DNA of 58,729 nucleotides from Bacillota bacterium (GTDB lineage Bacteria > Bacillota > Clostridia > Christensenellales > CAG-917), in contig JBNMJA010000001.1 of NCBI GenBank assembly GCA_050873585.1, positions 1 to 58,729 of the forward strand. Reading direction: 5' to 3'. Below the pieces are notes generated by a model. It was not told the DNA's origin, ran no database searches, and was given only the letters and a program-made list of their open reading frames with translations. Both the position numbers and the translations under genes were made by a program. How positions within the stretch are numbered: position 1 is the stretch's first letter; every line of letters begins with the position of its first letter. Below, piece by piece: positions 20,148 through 58,729 of this stretch.

Positions 20148-20450
20148 ACGGAATATTTTGCGCCGAATGCAAAACACTTGTCACCTATCTTTTCAAGATG
20201 GCTTGACAAATATTTTGGCGCAAACGTCCTGTCACAAACAAATCAGAGCATTTGTTCGTGCCGTAAGGGGTTGCAACTTTGAGGCGGCTCGGCAGTTGCA
20301 ACGACGGAAGTTGATGCTCACAACGATTCTTCGTCGTTACATAGACTACGGCTCCGCCTGTCTACGAGCAACGTTTCGGTGTCTGTGAAACCGATTAATT
20401 GAAGAATTTTCTGCGCGGTAGAGGACTAAAAGTTTTTGCAAATAAAACAA

Positions 20451-20582
20451 GCGTCTAAACGTCGCAGATAAGATAAAGAGCAAGGAAAAACCCCTTGACA
20501 GGCAACCCTAATTTACTTTCGTAAATGAGTTGACTGCCAAGGGGCTTTGACGATGCTATTTGCTTATCTGTGGCGTTTAGTC
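20451..20582 (-). repeat. Complete palindromic element (apex variant B) overlapping the rpsR stop codon
   Basis: An 18-bp outer stem pairs 20455-20472 with 20563-20580 (16 Watson-Crick pairs plus 2 G.T). The apex is GGCAACCCTAATTTACTTTCGTAAATGAGTTGACTGCC. The rpsR stop (20577-20579) lies inside the outer stem. Confidence 0.85.
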
Positions 20583-20831
20583 TGCTTTGTATGGAAGCAA
20601 TGCCATAACTCTTGCTCTCTTAATTGCAACAGCAAGCGTTCTTTGATGTTTTGCACAAACACCGCTCATACGACGGGGAAGGATTTTGCCTTTCTCGGTG
20701 ATGAAGCGACGGAGTTTTGCAACGTCCTTATAGTCGATATCATCTACGTGATCAACGCAGAACGTGCACACTTTCTTTTTGGGCACTCTCTTGGGTGCGC
20801 GGGGTGCTTTTACTTCTTCTGCCATTTTCAA
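20577..20831 (-). CDS. rpsR: 30S ribosomal protein S18
   Basis: 84 aa containing [43 protein letters not shown]. It sits in the rpsF-ssb-rpsR synteny. Confidence 0.95.
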
Positions 20832-27216: not shown

Positions 27217-27231
27217 AGAACGAAAATAAGA

Positions 27232-27327
27232 TTTTGAGATGAAAACAAGAAAGAGCCTCGCTCTCAGGCAGACGCGTACGGAAGTACTCTCCTGACCGAT
27301 TGCGGGGCTTTTATTTGTTCTTTCAGG
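27232..27327 (-). repeat. Variant (more symmetric) copy of the palindromic element family
   Basis: The arm GATGAAAACAAGAAAGAGCCTCGC pairs with the arm GCGGGGCTTTTATTTGTTCTTTCAG. The apex is CGCGTACGGAAGTACTCTC. Confidence 0.7.
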
Positions 27328-27403
27328 ACTCTTGCGCCTAAATATGCGCCAAGTTATCTAAAAGAGATAAGTGACATAAGTTTAGCATTCGGCGCAATTA
27401 TGA

Positions 27404-27820
27404 TTACAAATATGCCCTCAACGCCTTAATGTTTTTGTCGTAGACTTTCATAAGATCTTTCGCAAGATCGGGGACGTCAACGCCGTCGCGATTGAGTTCG
27501 TTGATGCACTTTTGCACGCTTTCGATGCCCATATTGTAACCGTCGATGAGCATTGACGCAAGGTGCGAGCAAGAACTGTTTATGCCGGCGTTCATTTTGA
27601 CTCCTGCCTTGAGCATCATTCGTTGCACGGGATTCGTTTGCGCGTCTTCGAGTTCTTTTTCGCTGAGTTCGGATTTTGCCTTTTGATAGAATTCCTCCAT
27701 AGTTTCCTTTTGAGAGAGGACGAGGTTTTTCATTTTTTCGCAATCGATATAGTTCATCATATTGTCGATTGACTGCGCACCCATTGCTGTGTTGCGCACT
27801 ATTTCTCTATAAATTTTCAT
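27404..27820 (-). CDS. Hypothetical helical protein
   Basis: 138 aa with RBS AAGGAGAA and no TM helix. I recognise no motif. Confidence 0.65.
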   Translation of the reverse strand: MKIYREIVRNTAMGAQSIDNMMNYIDCEKMKNLVLSQKETMEEFYQKAKSELSEKELEDAQTNPVQRMMLKAGVKMNAGINSSCSHLASMLIDGYNMGIESVQKCINELNRDGVDVPDLAKDLMKVYDKNIKALRAYL

Positions 27821-29223: not shown

Positions 29224-30615
29224 ATGAAAAAGAATAACAACAAACAATGCGATCAATCCGAAAAGAAGAAAAAGCCGTCCTCCAAGGTGGTGAAAACCGC
29301 TGTTTTGGGCACTGTGCTCGGTCTGTTTGCAAGCGCGATAGTCGGCCTTTCGGTTGCGCTTTATTATGCGCAAACCAGCGTAAATACGCACGAGGCGTAT
29401 CAGCGACAGATCGATGCGATCTATCAAAGAGCCTATTTTGACCTTCTCGACGGCGCAAGCGATTTGGGCATAAATCTGCGCAAGATAAGCGTGTCCAACT
29501 CAAAGAGTATGCAACAATCGCTTCTTTACGAGGTTTGGAGCGCGTCCGAACTTGCCGCAGGCAATCTCGCAACTTTCAAGGCAGACGACGACGGAATACT
29601 CAAAGCGCAGAAATTTGTCAATCAACTCGGCGATTATTCGCACACGCTTGCCCTCCAACTTGCCAACGGCAAATCGTTGAGCGAGCAGGACAGAGCAACT
29701 CTCTTCAAAATGGGAGATGTTGCAGACGAGTATCAAAGAGCGCTTGAAAAGGTGCAGAGAAATCTCGACGACGCAGATCTCGATCTTTCCGACGACGGTG
29801 CGCTCGACGTGTTCGTACAGTCGTTCTCGTCGTTTGCCGAACCGAGTTTCGAGTATCCCGAAATGATATACGACGGACCGTTCTCGTCCGCTTTGGAGAA
29901 TAGAGAAACAAAAGGACTTCACGGCGAAGAAATCACGGTAGAACAGGGAGCGGAACTTGTCAAAAAGCATTTGTCCGCACTCAAGCCCTCCGAAATTCAC
30001 TACGTTTCGGAAGCGAACGGCGATATAGTCACGCTCGATTATACAGTGGCGATAAACGGCGAGAGAGCATATGTCCAGATTGCAAAACGGGGAGGCATGC
30101 TCATATCGTTCAATTCGAGAGGAGAAGCGCAAAGCACAAGCATAACAGAGGCAAGCAAAACATGTCAGGAGCGTGCTCTTGCTTTTGCCCGATCTGCAGG
30201 CTTTGAAGACATGTTTGTCGTATGGTCGTCGGCCTCCGACGGAGAGTGCGTCATCAATCTCGCGCCATTGCAAGACGGTGTTATTCTTTATCCCGACCTT
30301 GTCAAAGTCAAAGTTCGAGAGTCTGACAATTCGATTATAGGATTCGACGCCACTCATTATGCTTTCAACCATTGCACGAGAGCGCTTGACGCGCCCGCAA
30401 TTTCGCTTGAAACCGCCACTCAAAACGTATCGATTCCCGCCATTCGTCAAGGCAGACTAGCCCTCATACCGCTTCGTGAAACTCGCGAAGTTCTCGCCTA
30501 TGAGTTCGAGTGCCACCAAAACAGTGTTTATTATATCTATATAGACGCGCGCACGGGTGAAGAGGTGAATATATTGTACGTTATTGAGGACGATCTTGGT
30601 CAGCGCACCGCCTGA
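29224..30615 (+). CDS. ypeB: Germination protein YpeB
   Basis: 463 aa with an N-terminal TM helix, lying immediately downstream of sleB. This sleB-ypeB operon is conserved in spore formers. The C-terminal half is compatible with PepSY domains. Confidence 0.8.
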   Translation: MKKNNNKQCDQSEKKKKPSSKVVKTAVLGTVLGLFASAIVGLSVALYYAQTSVNTHEAYQRQIDAIYQRAYFDLLDGASDLGINLRKISVSNSKSMQQSLLYEVWSASELAAGNLATFKADDDGILKAQKFVNQLGDYSHTLALQLANGKSLSEQDRATLFKMGDVADEYQRALEKVQRNLDDADLDLSDDGALDVFVQSFSSFAEPSFEYPEMIYDGPFSSALENRETKGLHGEEITVEQGAELVKKHLSALKPSEIHYVSEANGDIVTLDYTVAINGERAYVQIAKRGGMLISFNSRGEAQSTSITEASKTCQERALAFARSAGFEDMFVVWSSASDGECVINLAPLQDGVILYPDLVKVKVRESDNSIIGFDATHYAFNHCTRALDAPAISLETATQNVSIPAIRQGRLALIPLRETREVLAYEFECHQNSVYYIYIDARTGEEVNILYVIEDDLGQRTA

Positions 30616-30738
30616 AAAGGCACTATTTGGCGAATAACCGCGTCAGGCACGGCTTGCCCCAAAATCACGTACGTCTATGTACGTTAGGTTTTGTTTCAAG
30701 CCGTGCCTTCCTTGTTCTTTATCCAAATAGTGCCTTTT
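30615..30738 (+). repeat. Complete palindromic element (apex variant A) starting at the ypeB stop codon
   Basis: The outer stem is AAAAGGCACTATTTGG/CCAAATAGTGCCTTTT and the inner stem is GGCACGGCTTG/CAAGCCGTGCC. The conserved loops are CGAATAACCGCGTCA and TTCCTTGTTCTTTATC. Confidence 0.9.
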
Positions 30739-30755
30739 CACAAAAGATCATTAAA

Positions 30756-30851
30756 GGCGAACCGCATCAGTGCATATTGCCCATCAATTCACGTACGCAT
30801 AAGTACGCTCGTTGTTCAAAAATCGTATCTTCCTTGTTCTTCATCCAAATT
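30756..30851 (+). repeat. Degenerate copy of the palindromic element
   Basis: It retains GGCGAACCGCATCAG, the apex TCACGTACGCATAAGTACGCTC and CTTCCTTGTTCTTCATCC. The stem complementarity is largely lost. Confidence 0.7.
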
Positions 30852-31221
30852 GCTCAAACGGCATTGCGGCGATGACAATCGCCCCGCAGTGCCATTCAGA
30901 GGAGCGTAGCGACGTGGGAATCCCCTAAATAGAAACGAGAGACTTGTTTGGGCGATTGCCATAAACCGCATTTGTTCTCGCAATCACTCCGCGCAACCGA
31001 TACACGCTATCAGTTCAAGCACAGATAAAAACTCAAGCCGCAATTTCGCTATATCGCTTGCTTGGTATTTGCGCCTGTGGCGCGAGCGGCAAAATGCAAT
31101 TTGCGTGTTATGCACGCAAGCGGATAATTTAGTAATTTTTCACAATTCGAACGTAGTAAGGTATCGCTTTGTTGCGTGAAGCATATGATGCATAGATGCG
31201 TTTTCGCTCAAACCACACGTT

Positions 31222-36565: not shown

Positions 36566-37381
36566 ATGAAGTGCGACACTCACGTGCATAGCAACAATTC
36601 ACACGACGGAAAGTTGCCGATTTCGCAAATCGTCGAGATAGCCAAGGCTCAAGGTCTTTGCTATCTTGCAACGACAGATCACCTCGATTACGACTTCGAG
36701 TACGGCAAAAATCGTGCGCCCGTGAGTTGGCCCAATCTCAATCTCGAAAAATATTACGAAGCGTGGAAAAGCGCAAAACAGACACTTGACGAGGACAAAA
36801 ACAACACTTTAAACCTCTGTTTCGGCATTGAGGCGAGTTACGATTCGAGCCAAGCGGCAAAGGAAGCGTATCAAAAAACCATTGCAAAATATCCTTTCGA
36901 CGTGGTGATAAACTCGGTGCATTGCGTGGACGGCTACGACGTGTATTTCAAAATGGCGTTCCTTTTCAAAACGAAAAAGAGGGTGTATCGCAGATATCTC
37001 GAAACCATTCTCGAAAGCCTTGACGCACCCTATCCGTACGACATAGTCGCACACATAGGCTACATTGCCCACGGCGCGCCTTATCGCGACAAACTGCTCA
37101 GATACAAGGATTTCCCAAACGAGATCGACGCAATCCTCAAAGGCATCATCGCAAGGGGCAAAACGCTTGAGGTCAACTTCCATCACGAGATGGCGCCGCA
37201 AAGAGATATCATCGAACGATATTTTGAACTCGGCGGACGAAAGATAAGTTACGGCTCGGACGCACACCGCGGCGATATCTGCAAAAACTTCGACGAGGCG
37301 TGCAGAATGCTCAAAGAAATCGGCTTCACGCACTTGAGCACGTTCGTCAAGCACCAAGAAGTCCTCGTTCCAATCGAATAA
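36566..37381 (+). CDS. PHP-domain phosphoesterase (HisJ-family histidinol-phosphatase-like)
   Basis: The N-terminus reads CDTHVHSNNSHDG. Later His/Asp motifs are present (TDHLD, IAHIGY, GSDAH). Confidence 0.8.
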   Translation: MKCDTHVHSNNSHDGKLPISQIVEIAKAQGLCYLATTDHLDYDFEYGKNRAPVSWPNLNLEKYYEAWKSAKQTLDEDKNNTLNLCFGIEASYDSSQAAKEAYQKTIAKYPFDVVINSVHCVDGYDVYFKMAFLFKTKKRVYRRYLETILESLDAPYPYDIVAHIGYIAHGAPYRDKLLRYKDFPNEIDAILKGIIARGKTLEVNFHHEMAPQRDIIERYFELGGRKISYGSDAHRGDICKNFDEACRMLKEIGFTHLSTFVKHQEVLVPIE

Positions 37382-37644
37382 TCCACACACAAAAGACAGT
37401 TTCTATTCGGGAACTGTTTTTTTGTGCAAACTCAACCCAATAAAAACGGACTTTCATTTGTATATACTGTAGAAGGATTTTTTTAGCACGATAACAAAAT
37501 AAAAATAAGATATTCGGCAAGAAAATTGCTTGAATAAATACAAAAATTGAGGAGAAGAACTATGAAGATCAAAAGAATTTTAGTTGTAATGTTATTGCTT
37601 GTGCTTGTATGCACACTCTTCGTTGCTTGTAATGATGACAATGG
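37376..37644 (+). repeat. Direct repeat unit A1 (terminator + promoter/leader + signal-peptide codons) of the subtilase locus
   Basis: It is almost identical by eye to 38865-39135. Both begin GAATAATCCACACAC and end GATGACAATGG. Confidence 0.9.
37394..37423 (+). terminator. Rho-independent terminator after the PHP gene
   Basis: Hairpin GACAGTTTC-TATTCG-GGAACTGT is followed by T7. Confidence 0.8.
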
Positions 37645-38320
37645 CAACAAGGCAGATCCCGTTGCGCGACCGGCAGAGCAACCTGTGGAAAGAAAGCCGA
37701 CAGCAGATCCGAATCCAAACAATCCGTATGATTACGATCAGTATAACACTGATTTCAGTCAGGGAGATTGGAATTTTGACGGAACGGCAATTCTCATTTA
37801 CTTTACAAACACGGAAAGTTTGAACAACTTATTTTATGATTACGTGTTGGATGACTTTGACAAAGAAAAGTTCAGAAGTGTTGAAGATGCCCTACCATTT
37901 AATCTATCGACAATCAGAGAAAAAATTAAAAATGGGATTTTAGACACGGAAATCGAACGCTACAACAGAGAGTTGAGGCTTGAACTTGTCAATCCAAGCA
38001 AAGAAAACGTGTTAAGGTATATTGAAGAATTCAATCAGGACAAAGGGATAAAATGCTCTCAACCGGAGTTATACGGAAGTTGGCATAAAACCACAAGCGA
38101 TCCGGGTATAAATTCCCAACATAATGCTTTTCAACAAATAAGTCTTTATGATGCATGGGATATTACGACGGGTTCTACGAGCATTACGGTCGGACTAGTT
38201 GATTCGGGAATAAACAAAACACATGAGGAATTGATAGGAAATATTTCAAACATAAGTGCATGTTGCTATAGAGAGCAAGATATTCGGCAAGCAAATTGCT
38301 TGAATAAATACAAAAATTGA
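37562..38320 (+). CDS. Truncated subtilase paralog: lipoprotein signal + propeptide-like domain + first ~45 aa of the S8 domain (possible pseudogene)
   Basis: ATG 37562 follows GAGGAG. A lipobox LFVAC is present. The propeptide-like region is homologous to the other two cassettes. The S8 Asp-box VGLVDSGI is present. The frame then runs into the next copy of the shared leader sequence and stops. Confidence 0.6.
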   Translation: MKIKRILVVMLLLVLVCTLFVACNDDNGNKADPVARPAEQPVERKPTADPNPNNPYDYDQYNTDFSQGDWNFDGTAILIYFTNTESLNNLFYDYVLDDFDKEKFRSVEDALPFNLSTIREKIKNGILDTEIERYNRELRLELVNPSKENVLRYIEEFNQDKGIKCSQPELYGSWHKTTSDPGINSQHNAFQQISLYDAWDITTGSTSITVGLVDSGINKTHEELIGNISNISACCYREQDIRQANCLNKYKN

Positions 38321-38448
38321 GGAGAAGAACAATGAAGATCAAAAGAGTTTTAGTTGCAATATTATTGCTTGTGCTTGTATGCACGCTCTTCGTTGCTTGC
38401 AACGATGACAATGGTGTGGAACAGTTAACACGAAAACCTTGGGCTAAA
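38276..38448 (+). repeat. Partial direct repeat (leader + signal peptide + first mature codons)
   Basis: It matches 38996-39170 with few differences. It includes the RBS, MKIKR(V/I)LVA(I/M)LLLVLVCTLFVACNDDNG and EQLTRKPWAK. Confidence 0.88.
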
Positions 38449-38961
38449 CCTGATCTCGATAATAAATACGACGATTCGAAGGCGTACTCAAACGGAGATA
38501 GTATAGATACTTGGGAGTTTCAAGGAGAGTATATCCTAGTTGTGTTGACAAATAGCGAGAGCCTGAACAATTTGTTTTATGATTACGAGGTCGATGATTT
38601 TGGAAAAGATAAGTTTATCAAAATCGAAAACAGACGATCTGAATCATTGGAAAAAATGCGCAATCAAGTCAAAAACGATATTGAATACGATTCACAAGAT
38701 ACAGACACAATCAATCCTAAGGAGTTCACGCGTAGTGTTAAGTTGACATTGAAGTATCCGAGTAGAGAAAATGCTATTACGTACATAAACGCATTGGAAT
38801 CCTTATACTACGTTTTGTATGCTGTCCCGGATTCGGAAATTGGGGGCTCATGGTTTACATCTTTGAATAATCCACACACAGAAGACAGTTTCTGTTCGGG
38901 AACTGTTTTTTTGTGCAAACTCAACCCAATAAAAACGGACTTTCATTTGTATATACTATAG
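38332..38961 (+). CDS. Truncated subtilase paralog: lipoprotein signal + propeptide-like domain only (possible pseudogene or stand-alone propeptide)
   Basis: ATG 38332 follows GAGGAG. The ORF ends after the propeptide-like ...LYYVLYAVPDSEIGGSWF. Its last ~30 codons read through a duplicate of the intergenic sequence found at 37376-37470. Confidence 0.55.
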   Translation: MKIKRVLVAILLLVLVCTLFVACNDDNGVEQLTRKPWAKPDLDNKYDDSKAYSNGDSIDTWEFQGEYILVVLTNSESLNNLFYDYEVDDFGKDKFIKIENRRSESLEKMRNQVKNDIEYDSQDTDTINPKEFTRSVKLTLKYPSRENAITYINALESLYYVLYAVPDSEIGGSWFTSLNNPHTEDSFCSGTVFLCKLNPIKTDFHLYIL

Positions 38962-39135
38962 AAGAATTTTTTTAGCACGATAACAAAATAAAAAAACAAG
39001 ATATTCGGAAAGCAAATTGCTTGAATAAATACAAAAATTGAGGAGAAGAACTATGAAGATCAAAAGAATTTTAGTTGCAATGTTATTGCTTGTGCTTGTA
39101 TGCACGCTCTTCGTTGCTTGCAACGATGACAATGG
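38865..39135 (+). repeat. Direct repeat unit A2 of the subtilase locus
   Basis: See 37376-37644. It includes a second copy of the terminator hairpin and the leader. Confidence 0.9.
38884..38912 (+). terminator. Duplicated rho-independent terminator inside the 3' end of the second cassette ORF
   Basis: Hairpin GACAGTTTC-TGTTCG-GGAACTGT is followed by T7, a copy of 37394-37423. Confidence 0.7.
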
Positions 39136-40894
39136 AGGTGAACAGTTAACACGAAAACCTTGGGCTAAATCAGATCCAAACAACCAGTATGATTTGCTGT
39201 CGGATTCGCAAAGAATCGACTATAGCATAATGGACTTCGATGGAGAATACATTGTTGTCATTTTGACAAACAGCGAATCACTAAACAACTTATTCTATGA
39301 TTACAAAGTAGAAGATTTTGGAGAAAACTGGTTCAAAGAGGCGGAAGTGCTAGATGCTGTAAGCGCAGATAAATTGGCTCGTATTCGTAAGCAAATCAAA
39401 AATTCAATAGCGTATGACTCAAATGATCCGCAAATGATAGATCCCGGCACTTATACGCGCGAAGTGAAGCTATATCTCAAAGAACCGGGAAAAGAAAACG
39501 CCTTGAGATATGGGGCAGAATTACTAAAAAACGATTACGTACGCAATGTTGAGCCGGATACAATCGGCGGCGTATGGTTTGGAACAACAAGTTCCGACCC
39601 GCAAATTGCAGATCAATGGGGCTTGGAAAAAATAAAAGCTTTCGATGCATGGGATATAACAACTGGTTCATCACGAGTAACAGTTGGTCATATCGATTCG
39701 GGAATATCTAGGTCACACGAGGATTTAGCAAGTAATGTGTCAACGACAGGGTATTCTGATGAAAGGGAAAATCCGTTTTCAGACACGGCAAATCATGGAA
39801 CAAGAACAGCTGGTGTTATTGGGGCAGTTGGCAATAACGGGAAAGGCGTAAGCGGTGTATGCTGGAATGTAAATATTGTGTCACTAAAATCTTGTTTTGG
39901 ATCTAGAACAGAGGATGCACAATTGGTAATAAATGCTATCGAGTACGCAAAAAACAATAATATAAAGTTGTTAAATTTTTCGGGAGGATTCTATGAAAGC
40001 GCAGAATTTGATAACAAGTATAAAGAGCCTTTACGCAGTGCTATCCAATCATACAATGGATTAATTGTGGTGGCTGCGGGAAACAGCGGATACAATATTG
40101 TTAACGAGAATGCCTCTGGTATAAAATTATATCCTCAAAGTTTTGAGCTGGATAATGTTTTAGTAGTTGGAGCAACAGATCGTGATGATACTGCGTGGAA
40201 TAATTCTGATGGAGTATCAAATTATGGTAAGTCTGTTGTAGATTTATTTGCACCAGGAGTAGATATCCAGACAACAAGTGCCGCATCTGAAAAAGCATAC
40301 GGTCAAGTAACGGGTACTTCATTGGCAGCGCCATTTGTTACCGGTGTTGCGGCACTTATGTTGTCGATAGAGCCTAATTTGACCGCTGAACAATTGAAAT
40401 CGAGAATTATGTCAACGGTAGATCCTGTGCCTGCGCTGTCAAACCTTTGTGTTTCGGGCGGTAGACTCAATGCCAAGAAAGCGGTTGAGGCTCACGGACA
40501 CAATTTGACCACTTGCACGTACACAAGCAACGGAGTAAGAAGAGGGCATAGCGTCAGTTGCGATTTCTGCAGTTATACCGACACCGAAGTGCACAACTGG
40601 AGTCCTGTGAAAGTTCCGAAGACGGAGATTGTGAAGTATCATATCTGCACCAAATGCTTGGAAAAAACCGAGATTATAGAAATTCCCCATCCGTCATCGT
40701 TGCTTGCGCCAAACGTGCTTGCGTTGATAAATGAGAAAGAGAGCGTGACGAGCGGAGATTTCGATATCGAAATAACCAAAGACGTTGCGATAGTCAAAAA
40801 AGACGGCAAGTATTATCTTATGATTGCTTGTGACGACGACGGCAACCCTGTAGCGGATTTGAGCAGGGTGATCAGAAAAGACGAAGTCATTTGA
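39053..40894 (+). CDS. Subtilisin-like serine protease (peptidase S8) lipoprotein with N-terminal propeptide and Cys/His-rich C-terminal extension
   Basis: ATG 39053 follows GAGGAG. A lipobox LFVAC is present. The propeptide ends LLKNDYVRNVEPD. The catalytic triad motifs are VGHIDSGI (Asp), NHGTRTAGVIGA (His) and GTSLAAPFVTGVAAL (Ser). Confidence 0.9.
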   Translation: MKIKRILVAMLLLVLVCTLFVACNDDNGGEQLTRKPWAKSDPNNQYDLLSDSQRIDYSIMDFDGEYIVVILTNSESLNNLFYDYKVEDFGENWFKEAEVLDAVSADKLARIRKQIKNSIAYDSNDPQMIDPGTYTREVKLYLKEPGKENALRYGAELLKNDYVRNVEPDTIGGVWFGTTSSDPQIADQWGLEKIKAFDAWDITTGSSRVTVGHIDSGISRSHEDLASNVSTTGYSDERENPFSDTANHGTRTAGVIGAVGNNGKGVSGVCWNVNIVSLKSCFGSRTEDAQLVINAIEYAKNNNIKLLNFSGGFYESAEFDNKYKEPLRSAIQSYNGLIVVAAGNSGYNIVNENASGIKLYPQSFELDNVLVVGATDRDDTAWNNSDGVSNYGKSVVDLFAPGVDIQTTSAASEKAYGQVTGTSLAAPFVTGVAALMLSIEPNLTAEQLKSRIMSTVDPVPALSNLCVSGGRLNAKKAVEAHGHNLTTCTYTSNGVRRGHSVSCDFCSYTDTEVHNWSPVKVPKTEIVKYHICTKCLEKTEIIEIPHPSSLLAPNVLALINEKESVTSGDFDIEITKDVAIVKKDGKYYLMIACDDDGNPVADLSRVIRKDEVI

Positions 40895-42584: not shown

Positions 42585-44087
42585 ATGAGTGAAGAAATCC
42601 GCAACAATGCTCCCGAACAGGAAAAAGAAGTAGACGTCAACGAGGTGCGCAAGGTCAGAATCGCAAAACTCGACGAACTTGTTCAAAAGGGCGAAAATCC
42701 TTTTGAAATCACCTCTTACGAACGCACTGCCACGGCAGGACAGATTCTTGCAAACTACGACGAATTCGAGGGCAAAGAAGTCAGCATCGCGGGCAGACTT
42801 ATGTCCAAGCGTATTATGGGCAAGGCAAGTTTCGGTCACCTTATGGACAACGACGGAAGAATGCAGGGCTATTTCAGCCGTGACGATATGGGTGTTGACG
42901 AATATCAGGCGTTCAAAAAACTCGACGTCGGCGACATAATCGGCATCAAAGGCTTCGTTTTCAAAACCAAAACCGGCGAAATCTCGATCCACGTCAAGAG
43001 CGCGACCTTGCTTTCTAAATCCTTGCTGCCGCTTCCCGAAAAATTTCACGGACTCCGCGATCCCGAACTGCGTTTCCGTCAACGATACGTTGACCTTATC
43101 GCAAATCCCGAAGTCAAAGACGTGTTTATCAAGCGCAGCAAAATCATTTCCACGATACGCGAAGTGCTAGACAAAAAAGGATTTATCGAGGTTGAAACCC
43201 CCGTCCTCAACACGCTTGCAGGCGGCGCGAACGCACGTCCGTTCATCACGCACCACAACACCCTCGATATCGATATGTATATGCGAATCGCAACCGAGTT
43301 GCACCTCAAACGTTGCATCGTCGGCGGATTTGAAAAAGTTTACGAAATCGGTCGTCAGTTCCGCAACGAGGGTATGGACACCAAGCACAATCCCGAGTTC
43401 ACCACGATCGAACTTTATCAGGCGTATGTGGATTACAACGAGATGATGCGCATCACCGAGGAACTTTACACCACGGCGGCAGAGCGCGTATGCGGCGGTT
43501 TGGATATCGTCTATCAAGGCACGCCTCTTTCTCTCAAAACTCCGTGGGAACGTCTTACGATGGTTGAAGCGGTGAAGAAGTACACGGGGCTTGATTTTGA
43601 CAATCAACCTCTTGCCGATCTCATCGCGGCAGGCAACGAGATGGGGCTCGAAATGGCGGCAGACACCTCTTGGGGACACGCCCTTTACAATATTTTCGAC
43701 GCTTTTGTCGAAGAAAAACTCACGGGCCCGGTGTTCATCACCGATTATCCCGTCGAGGTCAGTCCTCTTGCCAAAAAGAAACCCTCCGATCCGCGCCTTA
43801 CCGAAAGATTTGAGTTCTTCATCTGCGCCAGCGAGGGTGGCAACGCTTTCAGCGAACTCAACGATCCTCTCGATCAACGCTCTCGTTTCGAGCAGCAGAT
43901 GCTTGCCAAAGCCAAAGGCGACGAAGAAGCCCAACCCTACGACGAGGATTTCTGCACCGCACTCGAATACGGTATGCCGCCCACAGGCGGACTCGGCATC
44001 GGCATCGACCGAATGGTGATGTTCCTCACGGATTCGGCGTCGATACGTGACGTGCTTTTGTTCCCCACCATGAAACCTCTCAAATGA
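42585..44087 (+). CDS. lysS: Lysyl-tRNA synthetase (class II)
   Basis: An OB anticodon-binding domain (VSIAGRLMSKRIMGKASFGHL) is present, followed by RQRYVDLI, FIEVETPVL, YEIGRQFRNEG and GLGIGIDRMVMFLT. The start is ATG 42585; the ORF track opens at TTG 42561. Confidence 0.93.
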   Translation: MSEEIRNNAPEQEKEVDVNEVRKVRIAKLDELVQKGENPFEITSYERTATAGQILANYDEFEGKEVSIAGRLMSKRIMGKASFGHLMDNDGRMQGYFSRDDMGVDEYQAFKKLDVGDIIGIKGFVFKTKTGEISIHVKSATLLSKSLLPLPEKFHGLRDPELRFRQRYVDLIANPEVKDVFIKRSKIISTIREVLDKKGFIEVETPVLNTLAGGANARPFITHHNTLDIDMYMRIATELHLKRCIVGGFEKVYEIGRQFRNEGMDTKHNPEFTTIELYQAYVDYNEMMRITEELYTTAAERVCGGLDIVYQGTPLSLKTPWERLTMVEAVKKYTGLDFDNQPLADLIAAGNEMGLEMAADTSWGHALYNIFDAFVEEKLTGPVFITDYPVEVSPLAKKKPSDPRLTERFEFFICASEGGNAFSELNDPLDQRSRFEQQMLAKAKGDEEAQPYDEDFCTALEYGMPPTGGLGIGIDRMVMFLTDSASIRDVLLFPTMKPLK

Positions 44088-44194
44088 GCCATTGAGCGAA
44101 TAACTGCGGCAGAGCCTCGCACTCAAACAGTCACGTACGACAAGTACGCTTCTGTCTGCTTGCGAGGCTCTTTCTTGTTCTTCATCTCAATGGA
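44088..44194 (+). repeat. Complete palindromic element (apex variant A) abutting the lysS stop codon
   Basis: The outer stem is CCATTGAG/CTCAATGG and the inner stem is AGAGCCTCGCA/TGCGAGGCTCT. The loops are CGAATAACTGCGGC and TTCTTGTTCTTCATC. The apex is CACGTACGACAAGTACGC. Confidence 0.9.
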
Positions 44195-44414
44195 CTCATT
44201 TGAGCAAAAAAAGACTTTTTCGTGCACACATCTCAATCATCACTTGAGAAACACTACAAAATTTCAACAAATCATTTTAACAGACTCATCTAATACAAAA
44301 CATTTTCATTTTCTAAAAACTACAGCGAGTTCGCAGTTTTTCTTTATATATTTTTAAGTTGAAAATCATTTTATCTATGTTATAATTTATCCATAAATAT
44401 ATACGAGGTGCACG

Positions 44415-50880: not shown

Positions 50881-51996
50881 ATGAAAAACAATACGATGGG
50901 CGTTTTGTTCGCATCCGATCCGGACAGCCATCTCAACGATTTGACGATTCATCGCACCACGGCATCGTTGCCGTTTGGCGGAAGATATCGTCTTATAGAC
51001 TTCACTTTGTCCAACCTCGTGCACGCCAACATCACCACGATAGGCATCGTCACGCGCAACAATTACAACTCTCTTATGGACCATCTCCGTATGGGCAGAG
51101 ATTGGGACTTGAACAGAAAAAACAGCGGCTTGACGTTGTTCCCTCCGTTTGCGTTCAACAGTGAGCACAAGGTGTACAAGGGCAAAATCGAAGCGTTGTT
51201 CAACCTGCGCGGTTACCTTATGAACAACAACGAGGAGTACGTGGTCATTTCCAACACGAATATTGCGTACAATATCGATTTTGACGAGGTTGAGGCGTTC
51301 CATATTGAAAAGGGCGCAGACATCACGGTTTTGACCTACAACACCGACGACGTCACACCCAGAAAACTCGTCATCTCGTCCGACAAGAATCATCGCATCA
51401 CGGATATGCGTTACGCAGTGGCAAGCGACACGGGCAAGCAACAATGCAATCTCAACATATACTTTGTCAAAAAGGATTTGCTCATTTCCCTCGTTGACAA
51501 CGCCTATGCACACGGTTGCTACGATTTTGAAAAGGATATCCTTCAAGAAAACTTGTCCGACTTGTACATTATGAACTACGAAGTAAAGGAATACGTTGCC
51601 GTCATCGACCGTATCCCCACCTACTTCAAGCGCAGCATGGAGCTGCTCAAACCCGAAGTGAGAGAGCAACTCTTCTACAAACACTCCACAATTCTCACCA
51701 AGGTCAAAGACAGCGTACCCGCAAGGTATAAAGAGGGCGCAAACGTCAAAAATTCCATCATAGCCGATGGTTGTGTCATCGACGGTACCGTTGAAAACTC
51801 AATTCTTTTCCGTTCCGTCAAGGTCGGCAAAGGCGCCGTCATTCGCAACTCCATCGTCATGGAAGACACCATCGTTATGGAAAACGCGTCTCTTGACTAC
51901 ACCATCACCGACAAAGACGTCATCATTCAGCCGGGCAGAGTGTTGAGCGGGTATGAGACTTATCCTATGGTGGTTGTCAAAGGCAAAGTAATTTAA
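50881..51996 (+). CDS. glgD: Glucose-1-phosphate adenylyltransferase regulatory subunit GlgD
   Basis: It is a paralog of GlgC that lacks the GxGxRL motif (FGGRYRLIDFTLSN). It occupies the Firmicute glgC-glgD position. Confidence 0.88.
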   Translation: MKNNTMGVLFASDPDSHLNDLTIHRTTASLPFGGRYRLIDFTLSNLVHANITTIGIVTRNNYNSLMDHLRMGRDWDLNRKNSGLTLFPPFAFNSEHKVYKGKIEALFNLRGYLMNNNEEYVVISNTNIAYNIDFDEVEAFHIEKGADITVLTYNTDDVTPRKLVISSDKNHRITDMRYAVASDTGKQQCNLNIYFVKKDLLISLVDNAYAHGCYDFEKDILQENLSDLYIMNYEVKEYVAVIDRIPTYFKRSMELLKPEVREQLFYKHSTILTKVKDSVPARYKEGANVKNSIIADGCVIDGTVENSILFRSVKVGKGAVIRNSIVMEDTIVMENASLDYTITDKDVIIQPGRVLSGYETYPMVVVKGKVI

Positions 51997-52114
51997 TTGC
52001 GCTATTTGGCGTGATACTGCGTCAGCGCGTCTTGCTCATCAATTCACGTACACTCAAGTACGTTGGGATTGCTGTTCAAGCCACACTTCCTTGTCTGACG
52101 CGCAAATATCGCGC
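51997..52114 (+). repeat. Palindromic element (apex variant A) starting right after the glgD stop codon
   Basis: It reads GCGCTATTTGGCGTGATACTGCGTCAGCGCG ... apex TCACGTACACTCAAGTACGT ... CTTCCTTGTCTGACGCGCAAATATCGCGC. Confidence 0.8.
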
Positions 52115-52220
52115 TCAAATAAATAACTTAAACTCACTATATATAAGGCTTCGCCTTTCTCAATTATTAATTATTAATTAATAATTATTAATTAAAAAAA
52201 CTCCCACTCAGGAGGGATTT

Positions 52221-53740: not shown

Positions 53741-56170
53741 ATGAAATTCAAAATAACTCAAAAGGAAATCGAAAATCACATTTCCGGAGTGTTGACCAGT
53801 TATTTCGGTGTCAAAGCCGAAGACGCAAGCAAGGCGCAAATCTACCGTGCCACTTGTATGGTCGTTCGCGATTTGTTGACCACCGAGCGCGTCAATTTCA
53901 AAAAGGAATGTCGTGCGCAGAACGCCAAGCAAGTTTATTATATGTCAATGGAATTTTTGCTCGGCAGGTCGCTTCGCAACCATCTTTTCAATATGGGTAT
54001 AACCGAAGAAGTCACCAAAGCGGTGGAAAGTTTCGGTGTCAAGATGGACGAAATTTATGCCTTTGAACCCGACGCAGGGCTCGGAAACGGCGGTTTGGGC
54101 AGACTTGCGGCGGCGTATATGGACGCTCTCACGTCTTGCGATTATCCCGCAAACGGATTCTGCATCCTTTACGACTACGGCATTTTCAAACAAGTCGTAG
54201 TTGACGGATGGCAACTCGAGCAACCCGACGATTGGCTCAAAATGGGCGACGTATGGCTCAATCCTCGTCCCGAGGAAACCTATCAGGTCAAATTCGGCGG
54301 CGTAGTAGACCAAAACTGGCAAGACGGCAAACTCACCGTTACGCAAAGAGATTGCACTGTCGTCAACGCCGTTCCGTACGATATGAACGTGTCCGGTTAC
54401 GACACGAGTGCGGTCAACAGATTAAGACTTTGGAAGTCGCAAGCCCCTCAAGATTTCGATATGGATATGTTCAGCAAAGGCGAGTATATCAAGGCAATCG
54501 AAGCAAAGGCTATGGCGGAATCCATCAACAAGGTTCTTTATCCTGCCGACGACCATATCGAAGGCAAATCGTTGCGCCTTAAACAACAATACTTCTTCGT
54601 TTCGGCGTCCATTCAATCCATTTTGCGCCGTCACTTGAAGTTCAACCCGAGCCTTGACAACCTTGCCGACAGAGTGGCAATCCACATCAACGACACGCAC
54701 CCGACGCTTTGTATTCCCGAGCTCATGCGACTTTTGCTCGACGAGTACGGTTACGGCTGGGATCAGGCGTGGGATATCGTCACGCACGTCATTTCCTACA
54801 CCAACCATACGGTTATGGCGGAAGCGCTTGAAAAGTGGCCTCAAAGCCTCTTCCAAAGCCTTCTTCCGAGAATTTTCCAAATCATACAGGAAATCAATCA
54901 ACGTTTCTGCGGCGAATTGTGGGCGTTCTATCCCAACAACTGGGACGTCGTCAATCGCAACGCAGTGCTTTCAAACGGACAAGTCAAGATGGCAAATCTC
55001 TGCCTTGCGACCTCGCACACCATCAACGGCGTGAGCGCGCTCCACAGCGACATTCTCAAAAACGACGTTTTTGCGGACTACTACCGTATGCATCCCGAAA
55101 AGTTCACCAACGTCACCAACGGCATCACGCACAGACGTTGGGTTGCGCAGGCAAATCCTCGCCTTGCGAGTTTGCTCAACGAACTTATCGGTGACGGCTG
55201 GCTCAAAGACGCAGACAAATTGCAAGACCTTCAAAGATATATGGGCGACAGACAAGTGCTTGACCGTCTTGCCGACATCAAACATAAAAACAAGGAAGAC
55301 CTTGCAAAGTATATCCTTGAACACAACAACGTCGTCGTCAATCCCGACAGCATCTTCGACGTACAGGTGAAGAGATTGCACGAGTACAAGCGCCAACTTC
55401 TCAATGCGCTCAACATTCTCGATCTCTATCTTCAACTCAAAGAGAATCCGAATCTCGACATTCAGCCCCGCACGTTTATCTTCGGCGCAAAGGCGGCAAG
55501 TGCCTACTATATGGCAAAGCAAATCATCCGCTTCATCTGCGCGCTTGGCGATCTTGTCAACAACGATCCCGACGTCAAGGGCAAACTCAAAGTCGTTTTC
55601 CTTGAAAACTACCGCGTATCTCTTGCCGAAATCATTATGCCGGCGGCGGAAGTCAGCGAGCAAATCTCTCTCGCAGGCAAAGAAGCAAGCGGCACGGGCA
55701 ATATGAAGTTTATGATCAACGGTGCTCTCACCATCGGCACGCTCGACGGTGCGAACGTTGAAATTCACAGCGAAGTCGGCGACGGCAATATCTTCCTCTT
55801 CGGCATGCTTGCCAACGAGGTTGAGGATCTTTGGAGAAGAGGCTACAATCCTTCTCATTATTATCAAACCAATCCTCGCATCAAACGCCTCATCGACACG
55901 CTTCGCCAAGGCGTCAACAACATTTCTTTCGGCGAAATAGCCGATTCGCTCACCACCGGTCGCGGCGGACAACCCGACAGTTACATGGTCCTTGCCGACT
56001 TCGACAGTTATTCTGCCGCACAACGTCGCGTCAACGACATCTACCTTGACAAAGAAACTTGGAATCGCATGTCCCTCGTCAACATTGCCAAAGCGGGATT
56101 TTTCGCAGCGGACAGGTCGGTGGAGGAGTATGCGACTCGCATCTGGAATCTCCAAAAAGTGCGTCATTGA
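53741..56170 (+). CDS. glgP: Glycogen/maltodextrin phosphorylase
   Basis: EFLLGRSL, GNGGLGRLAA, TNHTVMAEALEKW and the PLP-lysine motif EASGTGNMKFMINGA are present. Confidence 0.95.
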   Translation: MKFKITQKEIENHISGVLTSYFGVKAEDASKAQIYRATCMVVRDLLTTERVNFKKECRAQNAKQVYYMSMEFLLGRSLRNHLFNMGITEEVTKAVESFGVKMDEIYAFEPDAGLGNGGLGRLAAAYMDALTSCDYPANGFCILYDYGIFKQVVVDGWQLEQPDDWLKMGDVWLNPRPEETYQVKFGGVVDQNWQDGKLTVTQRDCTVVNAVPYDMNVSGYDTSAVNRLRLWKSQAPQDFDMDMFSKGEYIKAIEAKAMAESINKVLYPADDHIEGKSLRLKQQYFFVSASIQSILRRHLKFNPSLDNLADRVAIHINDTHPTLCIPELMRLLLDEYGYGWDQAWDIVTHVISYTNHTVMAEALEKWPQSLFQSLLPRIFQIIQEINQRFCGELWAFYPNNWDVVNRNAVLSNGQVKMANLCLATSHTINGVSALHSDILKNDVFADYYRMHPEKFTNVTNGITHRRWVAQANPRLASLLNELIGDGWLKDADKLQDLQRYMGDRQVLDRLADIKHKNKEDLAKYILEHNNVVVNPDSIFDVQVKRLHEYKRQLLNALNILDLYLQLKENPNLDIQPRTFIFGAKAASAYYMAKQIIRFICALGDLVNNDPDVKGKLKVVFLENYRVSLAEIIMPAAEVSEQISLAGKEASGTGNMKFMINGALTIGTLDGANVEIHSEVGDGNIFLFGMLANEVEDLWRRGYNPSHYYQTNPRIKRLIDTLRQGVNNISFGEIADSLTTGRGGQPDSYMVLADFDSYSAAQRRVNDIYLDKETWNRMSLVNIAKAGFFAADRSVEEYATRIWNLQKVRH

Positions 56171-56545
56171 GCAAATAGCCGCGGCAGACGCATCTTGCCG
56201 CCAAGTCACGTACGCTTAGTACGTTAGGCTTGTCGGCAAGATACATCTTTCTTGCTATTTATCTCAATGACACACTTTTTGATCAAAAGTGCTTGAGTTA
56301 ATAAACATAGACAGTAACGTAGAGTGTCATCTCATTTACGTCAAGTAAATTAGGGTTGCCGTTCGGGCATCGCTTCCTCGTTATTCATCTCAATGACACA
56401 CTTTTTGGCTTAAAGAAATGTGCTTGGGTGATAACACCGACAGAAAATCTCGCACACAAACAGTCACGCACGCAGAGTACGCTCCTGTCTGCTTGCGAGG
56501 CTCTTCCTTGCTATTCATCTTAATGACACACTTTTTTAGATTTAT
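56171..56545 (+). repeat. Three tandem palindromic-element copies (A, B-half, A) between glgP and the GH13 gene
   Basis: The copies lie at ~56171-56275, ~56325-56400 and ~56440-56545. Each ends in (T)ATTCATCT(C/T)AATGACACACTTTTT. Confidence 0.85.
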
Positions 56546-56555
56546 AAGATAAAAG

Positions 56556-58337
56556 ATGACTATGTATTCACCACTTATACACAAAAAACCCTACGGTGCA
56601 AGCGTATGCAATCAGGCAACGCAAATCACGTTTCCTATTCCGAGTTCGCTTCAAATCAAGCGAGTATTTATCGTATTGCGTCAAGTCTTTGGCGAGGGTG
56701 GAGCGGTGAGCGGCGATTCTTTGCGTTACGAACTTCCGTTTTCTCACAGCGGTGAAAGTCAAGACTTTTTTGAAGGAGCGTTTGCTTTGTTCGAGTGGGG
56801 AATATGGCAATATCGTTTCGAGGGTGAGTTTTCGGACGGCAATCTTGCGTTCTTTGGAAGAGGACTTGACGGAACGGCTGTAAGAGGCAATTGGTTGCCC
56901 GAATGGCAGTTGACCGTCACGAAACGCGACTATAAAACGCCGAATTGGGCAAAACAGGGCGTCATTTATCAAATTTTTGCAGATAGATTCTGCAAGGTCG
57001 GCGACAAACCTTTCACAAAGAGAGGACGGTTGCACTCCGATTGGTACGAGCGCCCCGACATAGCCGAAGACGACAAAGATTATCGCGCGGACGACTTTTT
57101 CGGAGGCAACGCAACGGGTATAATTTCAAAACTCGATTATCTCAAAACGTTCGGAGTGAGTTGCATCTATCTTTCTCCTATTTTCGAATCTTGCTCCAAC
57201 CATCGCTACGACACGGGAGATTATCTCAAAATCGATCCTTTGTTTGCAACGGAAGAGGAATTCGCAACTCTGATTGAAAAGGCAAAAGAGAAGGGCATAC
57301 GCATTATGCTTGACGGCGTTTTCAACCATACGGGCTCGGACAGCAGATATTTCAACAAGGAAGGCACATACGACAGCCTCGGCGCATATCAGAGCAAGCA
57401 ATCTCCATATTACGACTGGTACTACTTTACGCATTATCCCGACGAGTACGCTTGTTGGTGGGGAAGCACCGTCGTGCCCACGGTCAACAAGAGTGCAAAA
57501 GGCTTTTGCGATTTGATACTCGGCGAAAACGGAGTTATAGACAAGTGGTCTAAACTCGGCGTCAAGGGTTGGCGACTCGATGTTGTTGACGAACTGCCGA
57601 TTGATTTCACCGACAAACTCTGCGCACGCATCAAGAGTGAGGGCGACGATATGCTCGTTGTCGGCGAGGTCTGGGAAGACGCCTCGATAAAGATTGCGTA
57701 CAGCGAGTGGCGACCGTATTTTATGGGCGAACAACTTGATTCGGTTATGAACTATCCGTTCAAAGAGGCGATTTTGGCGTATGCCTTGAGCGACGACAAA
57801 AACGCGTTCGTGTCCGACGTCACCGCCATACTCGAGCATTACCCAAAGCAGTCGCTCGACGTATTGATGAATCTTATCGACAGTCATGACACCGCCCGCG
57901 CTCTCACCGTCCTATCGGGAGTCAAGCCACCGTATTCCAAAGCGGACAGAGCGGATTTCGCCCTCACACGCGAGCAGTACGATCTTGCAAAGCGCAGACT
58001 CAAACTTGCAAGTGCACTTCAATACACTCTTCCGGGCGTTCCTTGCGTGTTCTACGGCGACGAAGCGGGCAAGCAAGGCTATGAAGACCCCCTTAACCGC
58101 GGAACGTATCCGTGGGGAAGAGAGGATTCCGAGTTGATTGAACACTATCGCACACTCGGGAAATTCAGAGAGAAATACGCCAAGTTGTTGCAAGGTGAAA
58201 CCCATTTTATTTCCGATCGCGACAAACTCATATTCGAGCGCACTAGCGAAGACGGTACACTGCGTGTCGAGTCGCAAGGCTTGCGTCTTTTGGCAATCGT
58301 AAACGGAAAAACGGAATTGGCAATTAATAATGAATAA
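56556..58337 (+). CDS. GH13 alpha-amylase-family enzyme (neopullulanase/cyclomaltodextrinase-like, cytoplasmic)
   Basis: Conserved regions DGVFNHTG, GWRLDVVDE, VVGEVWED and LIDSHDTAR are present. There is no signal peptide. Confidence 0.85.
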   Translation: MTMYSPLIHKKPYGASVCNQATQITFPIPSSLQIKRVFIVLRQVFGEGGAVSGDSLRYELPFSHSGESQDFFEGAFALFEWGIWQYRFEGEFSDGNLAFFGRGLDGTAVRGNWLPEWQLTVTKRDYKTPNWAKQGVIYQIFADRFCKVGDKPFTKRGRLHSDWYERPDIAEDDKDYRADDFFGGNATGIISKLDYLKTFGVSCIYLSPIFESCSNHRYDTGDYLKIDPLFATEEEFATLIEKAKEKGIRIMLDGVFNHTGSDSRYFNKEGTYDSLGAYQSKQSPYYDWYYFTHYPDEYACWWGSTVVPTVNKSAKGFCDLILGENGVIDKWSKLGVKGWRLDVVDELPIDFTDKLCARIKSEGDDMLVVGEVWEDASIKIAYSEWRPYFMGEQLDSVMNYPFKEAILAYALSDDKNAFVSDVTAILEHYPKQSLDVLMNLIDSHDTARALTVLSGVKPPYSKADRADFALTREQYDLAKRRLKLASALQYTLPGVPCVFYGDEAGKQGYEDPLNRGTYPWGREDSELIEHYRTLGKFREKYAKLLQGETHFISDRDKLIFERTSEDGTLRVESQGLRLLAIVNGKTELAINNE

Positions 58338-58420
58338 TTAATAATTGCGGGTGGGGTTGCACCCCACACCCCAAACGCACACTTGTTCGTTGCCTACTTA
58401 TTAACAAAATCCTCCTGTTT

Positions 58421-58466: not shown

Positions 58467-58729
58467 TATTAACGGTCACTCATTCGCAGCGTTCTTATAC
58501 ACGGTATCTGCCATTTCGAAGACGGAATCCGAGCCGCAAGGCGGCGAGCATATGAGCGCCGCGCTCTCGTCGCACACAAGCCCCATTGCTCCAACCGCAA
58601 CTTGTTGCAGTTGTTCGCTTTGGTTCTTTGTGCTCCTCTTCCCACACGACGAAAACTGTGCTTTCATCGTTATAACTCACGCTTTTGTTCGCTTGTTTTC
58701 GTCGTGTGTGAGCCTTGTGTGCGCAGTAC

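Follow-up and report, generated by a model that had tools for sequence, protein, structure and literature searches.

A family of palindromic repeats lying in sense on stop codons in uncultured gut Clostridia, with arms that mirror the ends of the adjoining genes

The stretch of DNA analyzed here (the window) comprises 58,729 nt of contig JBNMJA010000001.1 from the Bacillota bacterium assembly GCA_050873585.1, assigned to the Clostridia lineage CAG-917. It carries the genes lysS, proS, rpsR, ypeB, glgD, and glgP, all of them housekeeping genes whose synteny is conserved across strains and species, and each is followed by a long, imperfect palindrome of one repeat family. Repeat finding, motif searches, and a hidden Markov model (HMM) built from the window copies give 15 copies or fragments (Table 1). 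A first-pass annotation of the same 58.7 kb had counted at least 14, and every copy that it listed was recovered at or near its coordinates. With up to three mismatches allowed, the 3' box of the element, CTTTCTTGTTCTTCATC, matches nine times in the window versus 0.28 expected, and the 5' box, GCGAATAACTGCGTCAG, matches four times versus 0.17 expected. The copies stand at operon ends or suboperon boundaries, namely, rpsF-ssb-rpsR, sleB-ypeB, greA-lysS, the glgD/glgA boundary, and glgP.

The hairpin is about 110 to 130 nt long, with units of about 125 to 130 nt when both ends are included, and its consensus forms a single continuous hairpin of 111 nt. From the outside in, an A-rich end of 4 to 6 nt leads into a short GC clamp and CTATTTAG, followed by the conserved box helix, an inner stem that varies, and a small apex hairpin; the 3' side mirrors the 5' side and closes with a T-rich end. 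The first-pass description holds for the outer stem, the boxes, the variability of the inner stem, and both apex types, and relatives add a third apex type, CATGTAC..GTACAT. Most of the “asymmetric loop” of that description, in contrast, is helical: GAA-T-AAC / GTT-C-TTC pairs imperfectly, and both this helix and its T·C mismatch are conserved. Past this helix lie two small pyrimidine-rich internal loops, TGC/TT and TC/TT, which flank the invariant pairs G21-C89 and A24-T86. The true element reaches about 9 to 10 nt past the conserved core on both sides, and the arm, measured inward from the palindrome boundary as far as core position 9, is 18 nt long at the median (interquartile range, 17 to 20 nt); at lysS, the stem of the palindrome is wider than the interval 44088-44194 proposed earlier. 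Four intact window copies have folding z-scores of -9 to -15 on either strand.

The relatives of the family were studied in sampled loci (L numbers below), taken as 8-kb blocks per genome and amounting to 863 kb from about 30 metagenome-assembled genome (MAG) assemblies, in which the iterated HMM finds 223 hairpin copies. Across these assemblies, 117 of the 133 copies with two callable neighbors point the same way as the gene upstream, from which a median of 9 to 11 nt separates them. The orientation bias noted earlier therefore extends to relatives, at about 90% sense, and within the window both co-orientation and adjacency to the stop codon hold for all six genes named above. Model starts of the HMM lie most often at +4 to +6 nt from the stop codon of the upstream gene on the same strand; a second maximum, at +116 to +140 nt, is due to the second members of tandem arrays. 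Where genes converge, the hairpin adjoins the co-oriented gene (median, 9 nt) and not the opposite one (307 nt); between tandem genes, 61 copies are sense and 8 antisense, some of these antisense calls being due to miscalled short genes, as at rpsR. Of 89 gene-adjacent copies, 61 pair the whole stop codon with the 3' arm. The copy at 27228-27327 is an exception to the stop codon rule: it adjoins the stop of a convergent gene in antisense and lies about 70 nt downstream of the co-oriented gene 27404-27820, with an unrelated 75-nt hairpin in between. Replication direction as the cause of orientation is unsupported within the window, where both copy orientations occur under uniformly positive GC skew, each matching its own gene.

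Since the units lie in sense at the 3' ends of genes, with the stop codon at or inside the stem base, the upstream message must include them as its end. We read the family as a lineage-specific interspersed palindromic DNA repeat, of the broad class that includes REP/REPIN, ERIC, and Correia elements, which is cotranscribed as a 3'-end hairpin, and we give this reading a probability of roughly 0.55.

Pair counting on 150 distinct full copies puts the maintenance of the hairpin beyond doubt. Standard pairs fill 90.4% of the cells versus 71.4% after shuffling, the covariation score is 0.451 versus 0.135 and falls to 0.06 to 0.12 when the partner is slid by 1 to 3 columns, and all four Watson-Crick types are present among the inner-stem pairs. 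The stems described earlier as variable but complementary are borne out by 1033 cells changed on both sides, against 298±20 in shuffled data. Such pairing could belong to a dedicated cis-acting RNA module, that is, a protein-binding hairpin of the 3' untranslated region (UTR) that is vertically inherited and under compensatory selection at the RNA level, and not to a mobile DNA repeat. The boxes and the apex are indeed 90 to 99% conserved while neighboring coding sequence diverges, and the same genes carry the hairpin in species whose proteins are 83 to 89% identical: lysS, glgP, a gene ending ..EEEAAKK*, and a gene ending ..WDVAMKL* have copies in different species. The near-universal sense orientation also favors an RNA module, as does the choice of stop codon, with TAA ending 73% (70/96) of element-adjacent genes versus 47% (282/598) of other open reading frames (ORFs) in the sampled loci, which suggests an association with highly expressed genes. 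The TAA enrichment could also stem from a target preference or from the creation of TAA by the A-rich end of the element.

The mismatches speak otherwise. In a structured cis-regulatory RNA read on the sense strand, G·U would be the favored intermediate, whereas the gene-sense strand of the variable stem has 89 A·C or C·A, 47 G·T or T·G, and 68 other mismatches, as foreshadowed by an earlier caveat that the few noncanonical positions checked in minus-oriented copies would be A·C in the gene-sense RNA. Counted once per subfamily, as roughly independent events, the numbers (18 A·C, 9 G·T, and 13 other) indicate a trend only. Moreover, the antisense strand folds better in 132 of 164 copies and is more stable by 4 to 13 kcal/mol in the window copies (at proS, -76.4 versus -63.7 kcal/mol), mainly because G·A or A·A stands there in place of the conserved pyrimidine mismatches. 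Selection would also have to keep a variable 12 to 19 nt of pairing into locus-specific sequence at hundreds of loci. Vertical inheritance of a fixed module is likewise hard to reconcile with several features described below: cores that are nearly identical between contigs of the same genome, mosaics and tandem arrays, truncation to fragments, and the replacement of copies between strains. Hence, we consider an RNA module of this kind unlikely.

The better hairpin on the antisense strand would be expected of a single-stranded DNA recombination substrate, read on the bottom strand by an HUH/Y1 enzyme (RAYT/IS200 type) or an attC-like tyrosine recombinase, that conserves structure while its sequence varies. 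Conserved mismatches and small loops within the variable stem, purine-rich (G·A or A·A) on the bottom strand, would suit such a substrate, as would the exchange of modules at the boxes and the apex; in addition, the AAC/GTT core of the box helix recalls the R boxes of attC sites. However, within one skew domain, orientation tracks the gene and not the direction of replication; housekeeping genes in conserved synteny, not cassettes, flank the copies; and a GTAG-type guide is missing. Nothing credible of the Y1/HUH type, nor an integrase gene, appeared in a crude motif screen of 2066 ORFs (about 1 Mb sampled, a small fraction of each genome). A substrate of this type is thus quite improbable.

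What the arms contain points to a process at the DNA level. Stop codons covary with the 3' arm (TGA/TCA, TAA/TTA) in orthologous genes of different species. At lysS, the outer stem takes in the last two codons and the TGA stop (44085-44087), and strains have four element alleles, each with a 3' arm complementary to its own gene end; the mirrored versions, about 6 nt each, are CTCAAATGAG, CTCAAGTGACG, CTCAAATGATG, and CCTCAATCGATA. Since outgroup LysS proteins end ..MKP[LI]xK*, the mirrored lysS codons are native coding sequence. At three sampled loci (L037, L089, and L093), the 3' flank mirrors 9 to 15 nt of native coding sequence. In the ..WD-xxxxx* gene family, homologous across four species, the mirrored species-specific coding sequence amounts to 12 nt (L089) and 15 nt (L093), with almost none in L086 and L075. 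Overall, the complementary extension past the conserved core has a median of 7 nt versus 3 nt with shuffled partners.

Because the 3' arm mirrors whatever the 5' arm holds, be it coding sequence or a particular stop codon, the arms appear to be complementary mainly through intramolecular templating. This suggests that the complementarity is largely made at the DNA level, compensatory selection on RNA being the less likely cause. Given that complementarity enters locus-specific flanks and that the mismatch spectrum disfavors the sense RNA, the covariation is not readable as RNA-level selection. The pattern is reminiscent of quasipalindrome template-switch mutagenesis (the Ripley model, with the thyA and lacZ hotspots of Escherichia coli), in which one arm is rewritten from the other in DNA, yielding apparent “compensatory” changes and palindrome extension as seen here. 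Quasipalindrome switching, though, is a mutational mechanism and not an element family, and it is not known to have shaped a family of repeats across a genome or to have copied the ends of genes.

Copying between loci is evident as well. On different contigs of one genome, copies are up to 95 to 99% identical, against a family median of 66%, and the core of copy C in the glgP array is 87% identical to the lysS copy. Two loci with 99% identical cores (L097 and L037) have only this core, ATTGAG..CTCAAT, in common, the outer arms being unrelated and one of them coding sequence; in other near-identical pairs (L079/L027 and L084/L088), the outer arms are common too, and the boundaries of the copied segment therefore vary. 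The three glgP copies are ordered A-B-C in the window, A-C-B in L001, and as an A/C chimera followed by B in L002. Downstream of ypeB, the first copy is kept in strains L121 and L122, and the second is chimeric, its 5' half matching these strains and its 3' half coming from another subfamily, with the breakpoint at the apex. The roughly 300 nt that follow the chimeric copy (30856-31190) are absent from both strains, consistent with ectopic recombination between elements importing foreign flanking DNA.

The glgD site varies by strain, with one copy, two copies, or a different 330-nt element. In the window, the outermost 3' arm of the glgD copy and a second copy were lost by deletion between AATATCGC repeats, as comparison with L001 and L004 indicates; the second glgD copy of L001, considered as a filled site with an inverted flank copy, is better read as the other side of this window-lineage deletion. 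At proS, the locus L085 (UMGS1170) has a hairpin copy 97% identical to that of the window beside a 100% identical ProS, which identifies MAG UMGS1170 as the species of the window, and the 3'-half fragment at 17038-17093 belongs to a local duplication of about 114 nt. Fragments holding only the 3' part (46) outnumber those holding only the 5' part (16), many of the latter being contig edges. A long autonomous version, with the 5' and 3' halves bracketing 0.1 to 5 kb, was not found in the sampled loci.

The ends of the element have features of terminators. A-runs of at least 4 nt occur in the 5' flank of 42% of copies (T-runs in 14%), and T-runs of at least 4 nt occur within 22 nt of the 3' end in 48% (A-runs in 22%), so that about half of the copies have the polarity of an intrinsic terminator. 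Outer arms with an A-tract, a GC clamp, and a T-tract in the right polarity could also be the stems of old terminators, if a mobile core of about 104 nt (ATTGAG..CTCAAT) inserts into the loops of preexisting intrinsic terminators. Insertion into palindrome loops is known from IS1397 and ISKpn1, and the identical cores of L097 and L037 do lie within two different terminator-like stems. However, native terminators of 444 element-free genes start 10 to 55 nt past the stop codon and overlap it in 3 of 79 cases, and outgroup lysS terminators start 6 to 7 nt past it, while the stems of the element mostly start at or before the stop; this argues against the outer arms being old terminator stems. The outer GC clamps are just 4 to 5 bp, the common outer arms of some near-identical pairs do not fit, and the orientation bias is left unexplained. 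Insertion into terminator loops is therefore very unlikely.

The family appears to be confined to a group of related hosts. A pattern with 21 specified bases, scanned over one genome per species, matched at least 110 loci, with HMM-level copies at 108 of the 110 matches listed; the other two, on an Opitutaceae contig and an Amycolatopsis contig, agree with a chance expectation estimated by hand from the specificity of the pattern and the size of the collection. Hosts among the matches listed comprise about 30 assemblies of uncultured gut Clostridia, among them UMGS1043, UMGS1170, UMGS1331, UMGS1366, Firmicutes bacterium CAG:475, “Ca. Limadaptatus,” and “Christensenella sp.” UBA767, UBA6880, and UBA7571, as well as the complete 1.65-Mb chromosome CP091723.1. 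The few copies in bins under other names are assumed, unchecked, to be mis-binned contigs. No hairpin copies were found in phages, plasmids, or IMG/VR.

Matches to GlgD and YpeB place the window among human-gut metagenome assemblies. Among 80 metagenomic lysS loci, HMM-level copies occur only beside three LysS that are 97% identical to that of the window. Beside an 83% identical LysS, a divergent-looking element start can be seen by eye before the contig stops 31 nt past the stop codon, and LysS relatives of at most 72% identity have ordinary terminators downstream. None of the 80 loci is an empty site, close relatives having either the element or a different C terminus. In L132 and L137 (LysS 93% identical), a C-terminal extension of about 145 amino acids, resembling a tRNA-binding domain, is followed by an ordinary terminator and no hairpin element; LysS of the window lineage ends ..MKPLK* precisely where this extension would begin, and the hairpin starts there. 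The repeats also break assemblies, many short-read contigs stopping at the hairpin apex. Several contigs among L123-L128 and L005-L010 (six Logan assemblies and the ENA contig L128) stop 50 to 65 nt past the stop codon, at or near the apex or, in the glgD set, at the start of a 290-nt repeat.

Whether the family matches one already described, a question raised with its first description, can be answered in the negative for Rfam, even below threshold, and for a full-text literature search, which found no description of it. In a scan of the whole window with Rfam 15, two tRNAs alone reach gathering thresholds, and E-value scans of the element regions give only far-subthreshold noise from miRNA precursors and snoRNAs. 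The family likewise falls outside REP/REPIN, miniature inverted-repeat transposable elements (MITEs), palindrome-associated transposable elements (PATEs), and attC sites by each membership test that gave a clear outcome. It resembles REP/BIME and REPIN elements, which occur with RAYT transposases in Enterobacteria and Pseudomonas, in being made of abundant extragenic imperfect palindromes with conserved mismatches, often at gene 3' ends, cotranscribed and free of target duplications, and REPINs in forming long hairpins of about 100 nt. REP sequences stabilize upstream mRNA, as in malE-malF. A REP unit, however, is an imperfect palindrome of 20 to 40 nt with a conserved 5' tetranucleotide, and a REPIN is two such units inverted; the arms of the present element are not themselves palindromic units, and a single hairpin of 110 to 130 nt stands in place of paired palindromes of 25 to 35 nt. 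Strict orientation, stop codon overlap, and the lack of a GTAG-type 5' motif set it further apart, and no RAYT, expected as a single-copy Y1 gene flanked by the repeats, was found in the 8-kb blocks sampled per genome.

ERIC/IRU elements (Enterobacteriaceae and Vibrio) and Correia/NEMIS elements (Neisseria) are also imperfect palindromes, of 100 to 155 nt, that are transcribed with flanking genes and form mosaic subfamilies. Depending on their orientation, ERIC and Correia elements are known to alter mRNA stability, and they serve as terminators or as targets of RNases. Their terminal inverted repeats are defined, they come with a TA target duplication, and they occur in both orientations, whereas the terminal 4 to 10 nt of the present element are locus specific and mirror-complementary, without direct duplication, and about 90% of copies have one orientation. 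In the outer arm, the inner part GCGCTATTTAG is common to copies, the terminal 4 to 10 nt differ between loci, and near-identical pairs have variable boundaries. The flanks of copies of one subfamily are inverted complements (TTGA/TCAA, ATGA/TCAT, TAAAA/TTTTA) in place of the target duplication of MITEs of the ERIC, Correia, RUP, or bcr1 type. Many ends read TAAAAC..GTTTTA, and a TA-duplicating MITE of the IS630/Tc1 type is ruled out, since other copies of the same subfamily end TTGA..TCAA or ATGA..TCAT. No parent insertion sequence (IS) sharing the hairpin termini was seen in the sampled loci. A PATE derived from IS200/IS605 would have different left and right ends, each with a subterminal hairpin of its own, and would insert 3' of a fixed tetra- or pentanucleotide, unlike this single symmetric hairpin, which has no fixed upstream tetranucleotide. 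The MITE/PATE-type alternative offered earlier is not supported as such, given the absence of direct target duplications and of LE/RE-type ends; the terminal 4 to 10 nt also vary by locus.

Integron attC sites offer another likeness, being hairpins of 57 to 141 nt at gene 3' ends, co-oriented, with a conserved structure, varying stems, and conserved unpaired bases; one DNA strand folds better, and hybrid sites arise by recombination. Here, in contrast, cassette arrays, intI, and attI are all missing, the neighbors are housekeeping genes whose synteny is conserved and not promoterless mobile cassettes, and of the R''/R' boxes RYYYAAC / GTTRRRY only the AAC/GTT core agrees with GAATAAC / GTTCTTC. 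The A-tract, GC-rich stem base, and T-tract of intrinsic (Rho-independent) terminators are found in about half of the copies, and the position at operon ends is common to both; the native terminators of the same genomes differ in starting at +10 to +55 nt, not at the stop codon, and the element differs in its interrupted, sequence-conserved stem of about 50 bp. Among interspersed extragenic palindromic repeats, then, the orientation of about 90% sense, the overlap with stop codons, and stems that copy the gene's own end are unusual.

The interspersed-repeat reading can be put together as follows. The interrupted hairpin of about 50 bp would act as the 3' end of the mRNA, with the GC clamp and U-tract probably serving as an intrinsic terminator in about half of the copies and the stem forming a putative barrier to 3'-5' exonucleases in the remainder, by analogy with REP in malE-malF and with ERIC and Correia elements. 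In DNA, cores pass between unrelated loci by copying or conversion, the boundaries differing from case to case; copies are mosaic, arrays grow, contract, and change order among strains, and 3' fragments accumulate. The arms would be kept complementary mainly by fold-back, that is, quasipalindrome template switching. The conserved boxes, mismatches, and loops may outlast this homogenization because a trans-acting factor recognizes them; a recombinase, a transposase, or an RNA-binding protein could be this factor. Both alternatives of the first-pass annotation, a 3'-UTR structure and a mobile element, are partly right on this view. Of the terminator or mRNA stabilizer that it proposed as a 3'-UTR structure, the sense orientation and stop adjacency hold, and “terminator” fits a subset, the T-tract being present in only about half of the copies.

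Several points weigh against this reading. About half of the copies are without a T-tract, and an interrupted 50-bp hairpin is no canonical terminator. The excess of A·C over G·T and the noncanonical pairs in general favor the antisense strand, and selection on the sense RNA would not lead one to expect the antisense strand to fold better. No empty site was found that would show the insertion event, its target, or a duplication, and no transposase or recombinase was found in the small genome fractions sampled. Template switching alone should erase the conserved mismatches, so that their persistence requires a selective agent, and the conservation of position across species is equally expected of a purely functional, nonmobile motif. 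Finally, termination, stabilization, and the transcript ends themselves are inferred from sequence. It is also conceivable, though distinctly unlikely, that the family spreads and is maintained in a new way, the hairpin being installed at stop codons and completing itself by self-templated fold-back synthesis, which leaves an inverted, not a direct, copy of the gene's own end; a lineage-specific factor would then read the boxes, and about a fifth of the genes in this lineage would have come to rely on the hairpin as the 3' end of their transcripts.

Table 1. Copies and fragments of the hairpin family in the window (MFE, minimum free energy)
Feature	Position	Strand	Evidence and remarks
Hairpin copy, 3' half, type-2 apex	1-50	+	Cut by window edge; HMM 2-48 = model positions 60-106; repeat family D8
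Full hairpin copy, type-2 apex CATTTACG..TAAATTGGGGTTGCC	62-176	+	HMM E=6e-26; MFE -43 kcal/mol
3'-end fragment GTTTGTTTTTCATCCAAATATCGCG	190-217	+	Sequence read directly against family 3' consensus
Hairpin copy, type-2 apex, degenerate 5' arm	229-336	+	HMM E=9e-19
3'-half fragment downstream of intact proS copy	17038-17093	-	HMM model positions 54-110; repeat family D10
Full hairpin copy at proS	17146-17268	-	Outer stem begins within proS TAA stop (17267-17269); HMM and folding
Full hairpin copy, type-2 apex, at rpsR	20449-20584	-	rpsR TAA stop (20577-20579) within outer stem; HMM and folding
Degenerate hairpin copy	27228-27327	-	HMM E=4e-12
Full hairpin copy at ypeB	30613-30740	+	ypeB TGA stop (30613-30615) = first three stem bases; HMM and folding
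Second ypeB copy, chimeric	30750-30855	+	HMM and comparison with L121 and L122
Hairpin copy at lysS (copy named in first-pass annotation)	44079-44204	+	Outer stem CTCAAATGAG/CTCATTTGAG; sequence and folding
Hairpin copy after glgD	51994-52114	+	glgD stop 51994-51996; HMM
glgP array copy A	56153-56281	+	glgP stop (56168-56170) within 5' arm (CATTGAG); HMM and folding
glgP array copy B, type-2 apex	56288-56402	+	HMM; poor hairpin, probably mosaic
glgP array copy C	56416-56537	+	Repeat family D16; HMM; TTTTTT directly after

Other repeats accompany the hairpin family. A second, larger family of about 290 to 340 nt has 74 HMM matches in the sampled loci, for example, at L002:11127-11445 (also in L003), L081:2575-2866(-), L021:1735-2023(-), and L011:3277-3562, with more than 30 other loci and a partial copy in the window (58512-58565). 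Its predicted fold is strong (-124 kcal/mol for 344 nt), and Rfam offers no match for it. A hairpin copy usually stands less than about 100 nt away, the larger repeat having either orientation, and in some strains the larger repeat takes the place of the hairpin after glgD; by eye, its 5' flank has GGAGCGTACTTAT in common with the antisense strand of the hairpin apex. The third repeat is an unrelated hairpin of about 75 nt (TTGCGCCGAATGC..TGTCAC.TATCT..AGAT..CTTG.C..GGCGCAA), present at window positions 20148-20231 (+) and 27324-27403 (-), directly after the stops of a ComEC-like gene and of ORF 27404-27820 and co-oriented with them, again without an Rfam match. Two subthreshold matches to the Gut-1 RNA motif (RF01706; gathering score, 50) were found, at L036:5955-6036 (-) with 44.7 bits and at L011:5382-5452 (+) with 32.8 bits, the latter directly after a hairpin copy. 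Gut-1 is known only from human-gut metagenomes, with no assigned host (PMC2864571); this clade may be the host of Gut-1 or of a relative.

The window holds three further kinds of repeat. The end of ORF 11707-12231 is an acidic, low-complexity coding repeat (11842-12233; GAC/GAA/GAG runs encoding Asp/Glu). Large direct repeats at 37376-39176, about 720 to 770 nt apart (one pair, about 1490 nt), span three adjacent ORFs (180 nt three times at 77 to 95% identity, 130 nt twice at 97%, and 105 nt twice) and probably stem from paralogs in tandem. Two AT-only tracts match each other (AATTATTAATTATTAATTAATAATT), one upstream of glgA (52152-52193), where the length differs between strains, and one downstream of the amylase gene (58315-58349).

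The hairpin family provides a natural case in which apparent compensatory covariation probably comes from DNA-level templating of the arms and not from selection on RNA, a warning for covariation-based discovery of RNA motifs in metagenomes. At about 1 copy per 4 kb, it is a high-density addition to the small genome (about 1.6 Mb) of an uncultured yet abundant gut lineage, and its near-obligate sense orientation on the stop codon, together with stems that incorporate the gene end, is untypical of REP, ERIC, and Correia elements. As recombination hotspots that differ between strains, the repeats are potential strain markers. If a dedicated enzyme installs the hairpins, they would represent a stop-codon-proximal integration system, and if they define transcript ends, the lineage would have its own solution to termination and mRNA stability.

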